64,000 nucleotides of DNA, from sequence record OQ417969.1. The stretch is one strand, 5' to 3'. The position numbers and the translations under genes are program-made. The DNA comes from Mycobacterium phage prophiT37-1. The notes under the pieces are model-generated. The model had not been told where the DNA came from. It searched no databases and saw nothing but the letters and a program-made list of their open reading frames with translations. Positions 23,128-63,600 of the stretch are shown here, one piece after another (position 1 is the first letter of the stretch; every line of letters begins with the position of its first letter).

Positions 23128-23331
23128 CTAGCCTTTCTCTGCCTGGATGTTTCGCCGTTCGACCTCGGCTAGGGTTTCGGCTGCGAGCTTGTCGGCCGCT
23201 TCGTTGGTCAGCCGGACTCCGTCGCCGACAAGGAACTCTTCCTTGTCGAGGTCGATGTCGTCGACGACCAGGTCATCGCCGAAGGTGAGGCGCTTGAGGT
23301 CGGCTTCGCTGTGACTGCTCATGAGGGTCAT
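23128..23331 (-). CDS. antitoxin candidate (BrnA-like)
   Basis: acidic N-terminus then VRLTNEAADKLAAETLAEVERR, RHH-like; ATGA-coupled to the upstream toxin-like gene. Confidence 0.35.
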   Translation of the reverse strand: MTLMSSHSEADLKRLTFGDDLVVDDIDLDKEEFLVGDGVRLTNEAADKLAAETLAEVERRNIQAEKG

Positions 23332-23579
23332 TGTGCCCCTCCTTTCCGGTACTTGGTGGGCATGGCGTGGATGCATACCCAGGTCCAGTCCTGGGTGGCG
23401 TGTGGGACCAGGATCAGCTCCAGCTCTACACCGGTGTCGTCGGTGCCTATGAAGTAGAGGCGCCAGATGCCGTCGCGGTTGTCGACGAGCAGCGGCATAC
23501 CGGCGTTGCGGAGTGCTGCCATGACGCGGCGCTTGTTGGCGCGCATCCGCGCTTTCGCTGTGAGTGTCACTCTTGCCAT
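23328..23579 (-). CDS. BrnT/RelE-fold toxin-like protein
   Basis: RLYFIGTDDTGVELELILVPHATQDWTWVCIHAMPTKYRK resembles the BrnT family core. Confidence 0.4.
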   Translation of the reverse strand: MARVTLTAKARMRANKRRVMAALRNAGMPLLVDNRDGIWRLYFIGTDDTGVELELILVPHATQDWTWVCIHAMPTKYRKGGAQ

Positions 23580-23663: not shown

Positions 23664-23993
23664 ATGAAAAGCCTTTATGTAAAACGTATTGCCGTCATTG
23701 GCGCCGCCATAGCCGCCCTAACGGCACTCCCAACTGCCACCGCTTCCGCGTTCCCCGACCGTTGCCTGTACGCCGCGACAGACGCCAAGACCTGCCTGGG
23801 TGCCCGACCGGCACCCTTCACGCCAGCAGGCGGCGGCGGATACAAGCCCCCGGAGGACCCGGAATGCCCCGAGGGCCAGCACCATCCACCTACAGCTCCT
23901 GGCGCGGGCGAGACTGGAGGTAACAGCGCTGGTAGCGGGTCTGCCGGTAGCGGTGGGTCCTCGGCGAGTGGAGGGGCTGGTACCGGACGGTGA
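23664..23993 (+). CDS. small secreted Gly/Ser-rich protein
   Basis: signal peptide MKSLYVKRIAVIGAAIAALTALPTATASA; Gly/Ser-rich C-terminus. Confidence 0.5.
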   Translation: MKSLYVKRIAVIGAAIAALTALPTATASAFPDRCLYAATDAKTCLGARPAPFTPAGGGGYKPPEDPECPEGQHHPPTAPGAGETGGNSAGSGSAGSGGSSASGGAGTGR

Positions 23994-24047
23994 TGGTCGC
24001 GGCTACCGAGCGGCTATACAGCCAAGCCCCAATCCTGTTGCCGCACC

Positions 24048-24065
24048 GCTATACCGCGGTATAGC
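24048..24065. promoter_or_regulatory. 18-bp perfect palindrome GCTATACCGCGGTATAGC
   Basis: TATAC/GTATA arms in the opposite arrangement; half-site GCTATAC also at 24013-24019; upstream of the Y RNA array. Confidence 0.45.
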
Positions 24066-24096
24066 TTCGTTTACAGACAACAAAACAGCGGACGAC

Positions 24097-24210
24097 GTGA
24101 ACAGGATGCAGGTCGGTTATCTCGGGGTACGCCCCCGTAGTTCAAGTTAGAACGCCCCGAGCCAAGCGGGGAAATGGATCCAAACCCGCCCAGCGCCAAC
24201 CACGTTCACG
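24097..24210 (+). ncRNA. Y RNA-like unit 1 (divergent; no clear tRNA-like module)
   Basis: 5' motif GTGAACAGGATGCAGGTCGGTTATC pairs with 3' CACGTTCAC (24201-24209); internal CTCGGGG...CCCCGAG stem. Confidence 0.35.
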
Positions 24211-24248
24211 TCGTTCCCCAGACCACAACTACATAGACACCAGGTGGT

Positions 24249-24376
24249 GCGAGCAGGACGCAGGTCGGTTACCACTTGCTAATGGAGAGGTCGCGGGTTC
24301 GAGTCCCGCCAGCCAGCCCCCGGCTGTAGCTCAGTTGGCAGAGCGCTAAACCCCGGTCAGCACACACACGTTCGCC
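24249..24376 (+). ncRNA. Y RNA-like (YrlA-type) unit 2 with tRNA-like module
   Basis: 5' GCGAGCAGGACGCAGGTCGGTTACC; T-arm GCGGG-TTCGAGT-CCCGC; 3' acceptor CAGCCAG, 3-nt loop, 5' acceptor CCGGCTG; D-arm TA-GCTC-AGTTGGCA-GAGC; 3' motif CCGGTCAGCACACACACGTTCGC. Confidence 0.55.
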
Positions 24377-24407
24377 CCATCACCAACACAACTCCATACA
24401 TAACAAG

Positions 24408-24538
24408 GTGTGAACAGGACTTCGTTCGGTTATCTCCTTTCCTGAGAGAGACGCGGGTTCGAATCCCGCCAGCCGCGAAAGTGGTTGTAGCTCAGTGGCC
24501 TAGAGCGCTAAAACCCGGACGACACCCACACGCTCACA
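24408..24538 (+). ncRNA. Y RNA-like unit 3 with tRNA-like module
   Basis: T-arm GCGGG-TTCGAAT-CCCGC; CAGCCGC-GAAA-GTGGTTG acceptor hairpin (7 bp including 2 G-U); D-arm GCTC-AGTGGCCTA-GAGC; end motifs GTGAAC / GCTCAC. Confidence 0.55.
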
Positions 24539-24574
24539 CCACCTCAAACACCAGCAGACGCAGGCGCGCAGGCG

Positions 24575-24708
24575 GTGTGGACAGGACGCAGGTCGGTTAC
24601 CAAAACAGTCAGGTGTGGGTTCGAGCCCCACCACCTCGCTCGCGGGGTGTAGCCCAATTGGTAGAGGCAATTGTCCATATACGCCGGTCAGCACTCCACA
24701 CGCCCACA
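24575..24708 (+). ncRNA. Y RNA-like unit 4 with tRNA-like module
   Basis: T-arm GTGGG-TTCGAGC-CCCAC; CACCTCG-CTCG-CGGGGTG acceptor hairpin (7/7 pairs); D-arm with AATTGGTAGA loop; end motifs GTGGAC / GCCCAC. Confidence 0.55.
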
Positions 24709-24740
24709 CCACCTACGCGCACGCACGACAGACAACCCGA

Positions 24741-24857
24741 TGTGAACAGGACGCTCGGTCGGTTATCACTCAATTGGTTAATGCAGGTTCAAGCCCTGTC
24801 GCCCGCACCCAGTGCGGGTGTAAAAGCGAAATCCCGGTCAGCACACACACGTTCACA
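24741..24857 (+). ncRNA. Y RNA-like unit 5 with partial tRNA-like module
   Basis: T-arm GCAGG-TTCAAGC-CCTGT; CGCCCGC...GCGGGTG acceptor pairing; degenerate D-arm; end motifs GTGAAC / GTTCAC pair perfectly. Confidence 0.5.
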
Positions 24858-24883
24858 TCACCCGCCCAATAGCCCCCGCGGGT

Positions 24884-24961
24884 GGCACGAGCAGGATCGC
24901 AGTCGGTTACCCCACCCCTCGCAAGGATGACGAACCCCGGCCGCCCTTCACACGTTCGCGC
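24884..24961 (+). ncRNA. Y RNA-like unit 6 (stem only, no tRNA-like module) or rsr leader
   Basis: 5' ACGAGCAGGATCGCAGTCGGTTACC and 3' CCGGCCGCCCTTCACACGTTCGCG can pair; ends 16 nt before the rsr AAGGAG RBS. Confidence 0.3.
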
Positions 24962-24990
24962 CGCCCGCACCTCTAACAAGGAGATGCACG

Positions 24991-62466: not shown

Positions 62467-63600
62467 ATGAGCTGGACCACCAACCCGCAACCGGAATCAT
62501 CAGAGCCGCAACTGGGTTGGTGGAAAGAACCACCACAGACACAGCAGCAAGAGCCGGTCACTGGCTGGTTCTGGATACCCGATAGAACAGCCGCCCTCAC
62601 CGCTGAGGGCACCATGGCCGTCGACGTTGCGCAGGTGTACACCGTCGGTGCCGACATGGCGGGAGCGGGCACCCTCACCGCCCAGGTCTCCCAGATATAC
62701 GGCATTACAGCGGGATACAACGGGGCAGGCGCCCTGGCAGCCGATGTCCGACAGCTGTACCAACGTACGGCCGCCATGGCTGGCACCGGCAGCATGTCAG
62801 TAGATGCGCGGGTTCGCCTAGACCGTCTGGCGCAACTGGCTGGTGCAGGCACGCTGTCGGCACAACTACTTCAACAGTTCACCCGAAGCGCCACATTCGG
62901 CGGCGGGGGTACCTTGGCCGCACAGGCAGCGCAGGCGTACGCCCTGGGCGCGGCCCTCTCCGGTGCAGGCACACTGGCAGTCCAGGTAGCCCAGAAGTAC
63001 CAACTAGGTGCGGCATTCGCCGCAACCGGCACCCTCCAGTGCGGCGCAGCGTTCCCGGCGATGTCCCCGGTACGCACCGACATCACAACGACCGGGTCCT
63101 ACACCTACAACATCCCGTACTGGTGCCGCTACATCGACTACGCGTACCTGCCCGGAGGGGGCGGCGGTGGCGGCGCCCAATTCTCCTTCACCCCAGCACA
63201 GGGCGGCGACGGCGGCCAATGGGTGTACGGAACCTGGGAACGCGGCGTCGATTTCCCATGGACCGCCACACAAATCACCGGCTCCATCGGAGTCGGCGGC
63301 ACAGCGGGCACCGGGGGAGGTAACGGCGGCAACGGCGGCCCCACAACCGGCATCGTCAACGGCTCCACCCTCGTCACCGCACCTGGCGCAACGGGACGCG
63401 GCGGCATCGGCACACAGTCCGGCGACCCCGTCGGCGGCGGAAACGCCAACTTCAACCGCGACGTCTCCCTCAACGGCCAGACCTACACCGGCGGCACAGG
63501 CGACGGCGCCGCTCCCGGCTCAGGCGGCAAGGGCGGCGGCGCATTCAGCAACGGCAACGCGGGTGCCCGCGGCGAAGCCCACTTCTACGCAAGGCAATAG
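62467..63600 (+). CDS. Gly-rich repeat-containing minor tail protein
   Basis: roughly 22-aa periodic repeats GAGTLxAQVxQxY; C-terminal GGGGGGG and GGTAGTGGGNGGNGG. Confidence 0.55.
   Translation: MSWTTNPQPESSEPQLGWWKEPPQTQQQEPVTGWFWIPDRTAALTAEGTMAVDVAQVYTVGADMAGAGTLTAQVSQIYGITAGYNGAGALAADVRQLYQRTAAMAGTGSMSVDARVRLDRLAQLAGAGTLSAQLLQQFTRSATFGGGGTLAAQAAQAYALGAALSGAGTLAVQVAQKYQLGAAFAATGTLQCGAAFPAMSPVRTDITTTGSYTYNIPYWCRYIDYAYLPGGGGGGGAQFSFTPAQGGDGGQWVYGTWERGVDFPWTATQITGSIGVGGTAGTGGGNGGNGGPTTGIVNGSTLVTAPGATGRGGIGTQSGDPVGGGNANFNRDVSLNGQTYTGGTGDGAAPGSGGKGGGAFSNGNAGARGEAHFYARQ

Follow-up and report, generated by a model that had tools for sequence, protein, structure and literature searches.

Y RNAs of the YrlA type have been reported from 254 bacteria and 22 phages (Chen et al. 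2014, RNA 20:1715, PMC4201824). As defined in that work, YrlA is encoded near the gene for Ro60, on the same strand, and consists of a 5' motif, a T stem-loop, a variable 'AS' stem-loop and a D stem-loop; a 'V' hairpin beginning with YUAY may precede T, and the 15:48 pair covaries. Wang et al. (2018, bioRxiv 10.1101/312249) explicitly likened YrlA to a circularly permuted tRNA. In Mycobacterium smegmatis, a single precursor gives rise to both YrlA and YrlB. This YrlA has a 7-bp acceptor stem; RNase P cuts the RNA both in vitro and in vivo, and its 5' half gains CCA (PMC4201824). PNPase has been described as the partner for Yrn1 of Deinococcus radiodurans, for YrlA of Salmonella Typhimurium and for the Ro60 of Thermus phage phiLo, which binds two upstream Yrl RNAs together with the host PNPase. 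Here we analyze a stretch of 64,000 nucleotides (nt) from Mycobacterium phage prophiT37-1 (OQ417969.1), which we call the window. Positions 24092-24962 of its + strand very probably hold a tandem array of six Y RNA genes (U1-U6) of a Mycobacterium abscessus MabK-type prophage, lying directly 5' of the gene for Ro60 (rsr) and probably co-transcribed with it.

The open reading frame (ORF) 3' of the array starts with GTG 29 nt after U6, and a Shine-Dalgarno sequence (AAGGAG, 24979-24984) lies 16 nt after the end of that unit. Its product matches Pfam TROVE (PF05731, 5.8e-47) and vWA_Ro60 (PF25045, 2.2e-63), that is, a TROVE HEAT-repeat ring with a C-terminal vWA domain, and shows full-length matches to Rsr of D. 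radiodurans (PDB 2NVO, 2.8e-101), Ro60 of Xenopus (1YVP, 1.2e-97) and also 9NEN. Its counterpart in the M. abscessus prophage prophiGD43A-5 (MW584167, cluster MabK), which is 97.7% identical to the window across the array region, is annotated 'Ro-like RNA binding protein'. We presume this protein to be the partner of the six RNAs. All units lie on the strand of the Ro60/TROVE gene and within ~4 kb of it, as is characteristic of YrlA, and all related loci (designated below by L numbers, with prophiGD43A-5 as L001) are arranged likewise.

How closely the units resemble M. smegmatis YrlA can be judged from the probe sequences printed in PMC4201824. These correspond to UUACCACUUCUAAUGGAAUGGUC and ...CUCACACGCCCACAUC, the second appearing also as AUACCUCACACGCCCACAUC...; the first is nearly identical to the 5' side of U2, UUACCACUUGCUAAUGGAGAGGUC, and the second to the 3' consensus of close relatives, ACNCACAC-GCCCACAUC. 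The shared architecture comprises a 5' side (...UUACCACUUCUAAUGG(A)AGGUC) that leads into the T arm, a 3' side ending in ...CACAC-GCCCACAUC, and a 7-bp acceptor stem. In M. smegmatis, too, the RNAs lie 5' of rsr on the same strand, and YrlB, which has no full tRNA-like domain, sits between YrlA and rsr. That locus differs in being on a bacterial chromosome and in having two RNAs, whereas six are found here in a prophage.

A phage-borne counterpart is known from mycobacteriophage ET08, one of the 22 phages with YrlA candidates in Chen et al. 2014, in which a YrlA-type RNA lies just upstream of a phage Ro60 gene, in a region that scores 79 bits over the full length of the covariance model described below (R1). 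Its 6-kb locus contains a single R1 match at E <= 0.01, compared to the six-unit array here. In the same ET08 locus (L048, 3084-3257), the hypothetical coding sequence gp219 overlaps the 3' part of the published YrlA, and this short ORF may be spurious. An earlier note on the DNA, made from the sequence alone, had proposed that 24249-24857 follows the YrlA design, with a tRNA-like module on a Ro-binding stem. This proposal is upheld by the adjacent Ro60 gene, by Rfam YrlA alignments (albeit below threshold), by the 79-bit score of ET08 and by the match to the M. smegmatis probes. The data support the view that U2-U5, the units within that interval, belong to a YrlA-type Y RNA array; U5 does not have the full T/acceptor/D module.

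Reading the sequence between 23900 and 25300 gave the six + strand repeat units. We built the covariance model R1 from U2-U4, with five hand-assigned helices, and searched both strands of the 64 kb. Exactly six matches were obtained, all of them in the array and on the + strand, with scores of 144, 140, 125, 76, 38 and 34 bits (E-values of 1e-32 to 8e-6); scores on the reverse strand did not exceed 8 bits. Because R1 finds these six sites alone in 64 kb, and with such E-values, chance can be excluded. Relatives were then gathered via the Ro60 protein, giving 23 viral or prophage loci (39-98% protein identity) and 22 bacterial loci. This protein search did not return M. smegmatis, so the comparison with its YrlA uses the printed probes. 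Each of the 17 related viral loci searched contains one to seven units that R1 detects on the Ro60 strand, and the bacterial loci that gave matches contain one to four. In most loci the units lie within ~1 kb 5' of Ro60, those of L025 being more widely spread. Unit numbers range from six in the window and seven in L009 to four to five in other prophage lineages and one to four in distant phages and bacteria.

Every unit is built on the same stem. The 5' and 3' ends form a helix of 9-11 bp (P1), followed by an asymmetric internal loop, a second helix of 8-9 bp (P2) and an invariant UUAY; a long interrupted stem formed by the paired ends is likewise a feature of YrlA. Of 67 distinct units in the family, 59 have UUAY after P2 and another 6 have UUAA, in keeping with the YUAY at the start of the V region of YrlA. 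The internal loop is also conserved, with 5' AGGAY opposite 3' ACNCACAC. In U1, for example, P1 (ACGACGTGAAC/GTTCACGTCGT) and P2 (GCAGGTCGG/CCGCCCAGC) flank AGGAT, and UUAUC follows; in U2, P1 pairs 24246-24254 with 24370-24378, P2 pairs 24260-24268 with 24353-24361, and AGGAC lies opposite ACACACAC. U3 has a P2 (UUCGUUCGG/CCGGACGA) that is compensatory relative to the other units.

The earlier note had described covarying terminal helices formed by GTGAAC with GTTCAC, GCGAGC with GTTCGC, and GGTCGG with CCGGTC. Such helices exist and do covary, and they are longer than was claimed, extending over 9-11 bp (GGTGCGAGC/GTTCGCCCC, GGTGTGAAC/GCTCACACC, GGTGTGGAC/GCCCACACC and GATGTGAAC/GTTCACATC). 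GGTCGG also pairs with CCGGTC; the U3 version is GTTCGG/CCGGAC, where a G-U pair has become U-A. The partners given for U3 and U4 need correction: GTGAAC and GTGGAC face GCTCAC and GCCCAC, with one A.C mismatch in each case. This mismatch is the most frequent state at that position of P1, seen in 37 of 68 family sequences.

Covariation and folding had been suggested as checks. Covariation proved to be strong across 71 distinct homologous units. Standard pairs occupy 94.0% of 1883 pair cells, compared to 79% when partners are shuffled and 29-39% when partners are slid by 1-3 columns, and the cells of P1 and P2 are 91-94% paired. Changes on both sides are found in 26 of the 33 pairs, distributed over the acceptor (7/7), P1 (8/9), P2 (5/8), the T stem (3/5) and the D stem (3/4). 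With no structure supplied, RNAalifold predicts the P1, P2, T, acceptor and D stems from 36 full units of the model-fitted alignment A3. Single sequences gave a mixed outcome: the fold of U1 is more stable than expected, as is that of U3, whose minimum-free-energy structure is the proposed one (z-score –2.9 for both).

Several observations weigh against assigning the six units to the Y RNAs. An Rfam scan at gathering level, applied to the window and 18 related loci, returned no YrlA call; in sensitive mode, the YrlA model (RF02553) aligns to U2, U4 and U3 with 39, 28.5 and 28 bits, none of which reaches the gathering score of 69. No exact copy of GNCGAAN0-1G, the published motif for Ro60 recognition, occurs in any of the six units, and this is the one defining feature of YrlA that U2-U4 do not cleanly match. 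As the alignment behind the covariation had been fitted to R1, its pairing is somewhat inflated. Finally, when U2, U4 and U6 are folded singly, their structures do not exceed those of shuffled sequences in stability (z-scores of +0.9, –0.2 and –0.2). We read the Rfam shortfall as a limit of the model's reach, since the published member ET08 aligns to R1 over its full length. As for the recognition motif, the equivalent site (the last two nucleotides of P1, the 5' internal loop and the first nucleotide of P2) reads GCAGGACG, ACAGGACG or GCAGGAUC, with the six-unit consensus [G/A]CAGGAYG, and at the same junction of P1 and internal loop the relatives form a series from GCCGGACG to an exact GCCGAAG, the latter in 2 of 67 units. 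Given that only U1 and U3 have significant fold z-scores, support for the structures rests on the comparative data.

The distal parts of the units carry hallmarks of tRNA. Among 45 distinct tRNA-like units, the T loop is UUCRANY in all 45, U8A9 is present in 36, and the acceptor strands are 7 nt long in 41 while varying freely in sequence; the D-loop GG is found in 34 of 34. The 15:48 Levitt pair is G15:C48 in 29 units and A15:U48 in 4 (the U4 type), with 1 exception. After computational un-permutation and the addition of a donor anticodon arm, U2-U4 were each called by ARAGORN as a tRNA with the expected ends; U5 was not called. The program also called chimeras in which the 5' half of a unit was joined to the 3' half of the unit after it, so this test shows tRNA likeness only, and the partnership of the strands has to be settled by comparing pair counts within and across units (below).

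The earlier note had placed the elements of U2-U5 in the order T arm, 3' acceptor strand, loop, 5' acceptor strand, D arm. This order, which is that of YrlA, holds for U2-U4. In U5, no D arm is present: 3 nt replace 16 D-arm positions of the model (UA-AAA-GCGAAAUC in the covariance-model alignment). The acceptor loop lengths (3, 4, 4 and 7 nt), acceptor pairs, G-U counts and single mismatch in U2 (A.C) given in the earlier note are all exact when read directly from the sequence. U2 comprises UUAC and a V hairpin (24272-24285), the T arm (24293-24309), the acceptor hairpin CAGCCAG-CCC-CCGGCTG (24310-24326), U8A9 and the D arm (24329-24344). The corresponding parts of U3 are a V hairpin (24433-24449), T arm (24453-24469), acceptor hairpin CAGCCGC-GAAA-GTGGTTG (24470-24487) and D arm (24490-24506). 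U4 has no clear V hairpin; its T arm (24615-24631) is followed by CACCTCG-CTCG-CGGGGTG (24632-24649) and the D arm (24652-24668), in which A15 is matched by U48. In these three units the T stem has 5 bp, the T loop is UUCGAGU, UUCGAAU or UUCGAGC, and the D arm contains AGU(U)GG or AAUUGG. U5 consists of a T arm (24783-24799) and the acceptor hairpin CGCCCGC-ACCCAGT-GCGGGTG (24800-24820), a perfect 7-bp stem with a 7-nt loop, and the same subtype (T arm and acceptor, no D arm) recurs in L003, L005, L009 and L010-L012. All four units thus stack 7-nt acceptor strands on a 5-bp T stem, fully paired in U3-U5.

In line with what had been claimed, U1 and U6 keep the stem motifs and, as judged by the covariance-model alignment, have no tRNA-like module. 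The distal module of U1 has three hairpins (24124-24135, 24140-24153 and 24155-24171) with no tRNA likeness, and this unit is conserved in 97%-identical relatives only. U6 has a small hairpin, CCUCGCAAGG, at 24917-24926. A short unit occupies the same Ro60-proximal position in 16 of 18 related loci, and further such matches occur in some bacterial loci. The features of the locus are collected in Table 1.

Table 1. Y RNA units and associated features of the window (R1, covariance model built from U2-U4)
Feature	Positions	Strand	Evidence
Candidate promoter/operator of the Y RNA/rsr operon (tentative)	24038..24067	+	Conserved palindrome and TTGNNN
U1, Y RNA	24092..24214	+	R1 37.6 bits, E 1e-6, stem alone aligning; fold z-score –2.9
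U2, full YrlA-type unit	24246..24378	+	R1 144 bits; Rfam YrlA 38.9 bits, E 9.5e-7
U3, full YrlA-type unit	24407..24540	+	R1 140 bits; Rfam YrlA 28.1 bits, E 1.2e-3; fold z-score –2.9
U4, full YrlA-type unit	24574..24710	+	R1 125 bits; Rfam YrlA 28.5 bits, E 9.7e-4
U5, Y RNA with T arm and acceptor hairpin, without D arm	24739..24859	+	R1 75.8 bits
U6, short Y RNA, stem and small hairpin	24884..24962	+	R1 34 bits, E 8e-6
rsr, Ro60 orthologue, 575 aa	24991..26718	+	Pfam TROVE, vWA_Ro60 and PDB matches

Two details of the acceptor hairpins were considered and set aside. The acceptor of U4 carries G3:U70, the alanine identity pair; as U4-like units of distant relatives (Sparky, L017, L016) have G3:C70, this is probably incidental. 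A CCA templated in the acceptor loop was also rejected. The first three nucleotides of the loop are heterogeneous (GAA, CCC, UUC, GCC and others), so any CCA would need to be added, as in M. smegmatis.

More distant systems share parts of this design. YrlA of S. Typhimurium (RF02553; crystal structure 6CU1) has the same order of stem, T arm, closed acceptor stem-loop and D arm, together with the tertiary contacts of tRNA. It differs in having a 6-bp acceptor stem that is not cut by RNase P, in lying beside rtcBA under the control of RtcR, and in sequence, which has diverged to the point that the Rfam model gives 28-39 bits here against its cut-off of 69 and that the exact recognition motif is missing from U1-U6. 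With D. radiodurans (Yrn1 and Yrn2) and phage phiLo (Yrl1 and Yrl2), our locus shares the presence of several Y RNAs 5' of rsr. In both systems a Y RNA tethers Ro60 to PNPase, and in the case of phiLo the Ro60 is itself phage-encoded. Unlike the units described here, Yrn1 has the other orientation of T- and D-like elements, no tRNA-like domain is described for phiLo, and each system has two characterised RNAs. Permuted tRNA genes of Cyanidioschyzon and some archaea also place the 3' half before the 5' half, with an acceptor that is initially a closed loop; those genes, however, have an anticodon arm and are matured to functional tRNAs, whereas here there is none and the ends form a Ro60-type stem. 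We also note that Sparky, ET08 and two metagenomic phages have genuine tRNA clusters beside their Y RNA/Ro60 loci (L002, 1879-2437; L023, 5187-5638; L025, 389-1251; L048, 310-464), which fits the published idea that YrlA originated from tandem tRNA genes.

Could the array instead be a decayed or unconventional tRNA cluster, made up of pseudogenes or of genes that join the 5' half of unit n to the 3' half of unit n+1 over an insert of ~100 nt? Genuine clusters do adjoin the array in related phages (Sparky, L023 and L025), one GenBank entry (prophiGD43A-5) has a 'tRNA-Thr' at the locus, and the Rfam tRNA model in sensitive mode gives 40.3 bits for 24320-24477, which combines the 5' acceptor/D half of U2 and the T/3' acceptor half of U3 around a 99-nt insert. 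The pair counts say otherwise. Within a unit, the acceptor strands form 7/7 pairs in 32 units and 6/7 in 9, whereas the 5' strand of unit n and the 3' strand of unit n+1 most often form 4/7 (range 2-6). Since the strands pair within and not across units, each unit has a closed hairpin, and the true order is T arm, acceptor, D arm. Moreover, the supposed insert (P1, internal loop and P2) is the most conserved, covarying part of the unit, and the array always accompanies Ro60. The units follow neither the canonical cloverleaf order (acceptor-D-anticodon-T-acceptor) nor, having no anticodon stem-loop, the plan of a permuted gene for a functional tRNA; where an anticodon arm would be expected, P2, the internal loop and P1 continue to the ends of the RNA. 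The earlier note was correct in stating that no anticodon arm is present, although it overlooked the V hairpin 5' of the T arm in U2 and U3. It had also anticipated that tRNA finders would return nothing or fragments: ARAGORN finds no tRNA gene in the whole window and none in the native units, and it makes false calls on half units in relatives, where it reports Thr, Arg or none among sequences that are 97% identical. We consider a tRNA cluster scarcely credible.

Two other explanations accept the tRNA-like modules but assign them different roles. They could be processing punctuation rather than effector-binding domains, with RNase P, and possibly RNase Z or E, dicing the leader and maturing the rsr mRNA. 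Acceptor stems of 7 bp in 41 of 45 distinct units, the cleavage of M. smegmatis YrlA by RNase P in vivo, the derivation of YrlA and YrlB from a single precursor and the position of U6, which abuts the rsr ribosome-binding site, are all in keeping with this. Punctuation, however, would require neither a D arm, a covarying Levitt pair and partners for GG and the T loop, nor a Ro60-type stem and internal loop on every unit, and U1 and U6 have kept the stem with no tRNA-like element. Although processing and Y RNA roles may coexist, we think it unlikely that punctuation is the whole explanation. Even less probable, in our view, is that the modules are tRNA decoys which act independently of Ro60 by absorbing host tRNA-directed nucleases, toxins or modification enzymes at prophage induction. 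The presence of several different acceptor stems per array and the faithful tRNA tertiary signatures would suit decoys, as would the BrnT-like toxin-antitoxin pair that is annotated in prophiGD43A-5 just upstream, on the opposite strand; Pfam, though, did not confirm these ORFs in the window. Decoys would not account for the Ro60-ligand-type stem and internal loop on every unit, tRNA-like or not, or for the strict linkage of array and Ro60 across distant lineages, and with the anticodon loop missing, anticodon-loop nucleases would have no target.

Returning to the Y RNA assignment, the relatives in M. smegmatis, S. Typhimurium, D. radiodurans and phiLo suggest how such an array may work. By analogy, the stem and internal loop would be the binding site for Ro60, the bound RNA would gate the Ro60 cavity, and the distal module would tether Ro60 to a partner. 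For the tRNA-like modules, this partner may be a putative tRNA-binding factor, and different distal modules could offer a single Ro60 several alternative partners. U2-U5 are likely substrates of RNase P, as is M. smegmatis YrlA, and cleavage would yield nicked molecules with a 5' half able to receive CCA. Processing of the RNase P type is expected for these units given their 7-nt acceptor strands (with an A.C mismatch in U2) on a 5-bp T stem; the strand length is kept in 41 of 45 distinct units. A bolder scheme is that MabK-type prophages combine one Ro60 with a set of interchangeable Y RNA adapters, six to seven in number, of which three to four are complete tRNA mimics with different 7-bp acceptors. 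These adapters would dock Ro60 (with host PNPase) on several tRNA-handling host factors or shield the phage from tRNA-directed defences during induction. We offer this scheme as speculation that is far more likely to be wrong than right. If true, the multi-adapter array would also illustrate, in a living system, the proposed descent of YrlA from tandem tRNA genes.

The array bears on existing annotations. In prophiGD43A-5, the 1.4-kb gap 5' of the Ro60 gene holds a single annotated feature, gene 51, 'tRNA-Thr(tgt)' (L001, 6341-6419, equivalent to 24240-24318 of the window), which is the 5' half of a YrlA-type unit. The same is true of gene 117 of Microbacterium phage Magritte, 'tRNA-Arg(tct)' (OR553905; L049, 2487-2563). 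The prophiGD43A-5 error extends to Table 1 of the paper on M. abscessus prophages, which lists '1 tRNA' for this prophage; that paper makes no mention of Ro60 or Y RNAs. In close relatives, ARAGORN takes the V hairpin CCA-CUUNUAA-UGG for an anticodon arm. Applied to U2-type 5' halves, it yields Thr(tgt) for L001 and for L005 but Arg(tct) for L009 and for L017, with no call in the window. A 1-nt difference in the V-hairpin loop shifts the call, which changes identity or vanishes among 97%-identical relatives. The array thus corrects database errors in two phage records, and, in a clinically relevant family of M. abscessus prophages, it accounts for 0.9 kb of a 1.4-kb stretch of 'empty' DNA. The Rfam YrlA model, for its part, misses the whole actinobacterial and actinophage branch, and such RNAs therefore stay unannotated.

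The kind of element, its mimicry of tRNA, the permuted order and its presence in mycobacteriophages have all been published. What appears to be new is the size and heterogeneity of the array, with six units here and up to seven in relatives (the supplementary per-phage tables of Chen et al. 2014 lie outside this comparison). The conserved subtype represented by U5, with T arm and acceptor only, and the annotation problems, namely the miss at the Rfam cut-off and the false GenBank tRNAs, also appear to be new. We have found no larger sets described than these arrays of up to seven heterogeneous Y RNAs next to a single phage Ro60; the cases used for comparison have two Y RNAs, four small RNAs 5' of rsr (D. 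radiodurans) or four Y RNAs (humans). With such arrays, the binding partners of the tRNA-like domain of Y RNAs can be sought in a compact system.

Upstream of U1, a –35-like hexamer (TTGCCG, 24038-24043) is separated by a 16-nt spacer from TATAGC/TAGCTT (24060-24067), which is embedded in the palindrome GCTATAC-CGCG-GTATAGC (24048-24065). GCTRTAC-N4-GTAYAG is kept 25-45 nt before the first unit in five lineages (the window, L010, L016, L017 and L019), with a TTGNNN hexamer 16-17 nt before the TAYAGY half. This conservation suggests a candidate promoter (SigA-type) with an overlapping operator for the array and rsr. A consensus scan labels the hairpin at 24048-24065 'terminator-like'. Near-matches to the palindrome at 62694 and 62754 were considered as further operators and rejected, as both lie inside a repetitive coding ORF (62467-63600, +); this ORF encodes 377 aa with an internal peptide repeat, and the near-copies look like a coincidence of the coding repeat.

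Short direct repeats, GCYGGTAGCGG (three copies) and CCGNNCGGCTATACNGC (two copies), are found at 23928-23986 and 24006-24057, in non-coding DNA between the array and divergently oriented genes. Farther upstream, at 23128-23561 on the – strand, prophiGD43A-5 has its BrnT-like toxin and antitoxin annotated, with transcription pointing away from the array. Pfam searches with the longest ORFs flanking the array in the window did not recover this pair; the sole informative match was to DUF7736 (27462-27848, +; 6.4e-25), ~750 nt 3' of rsr.

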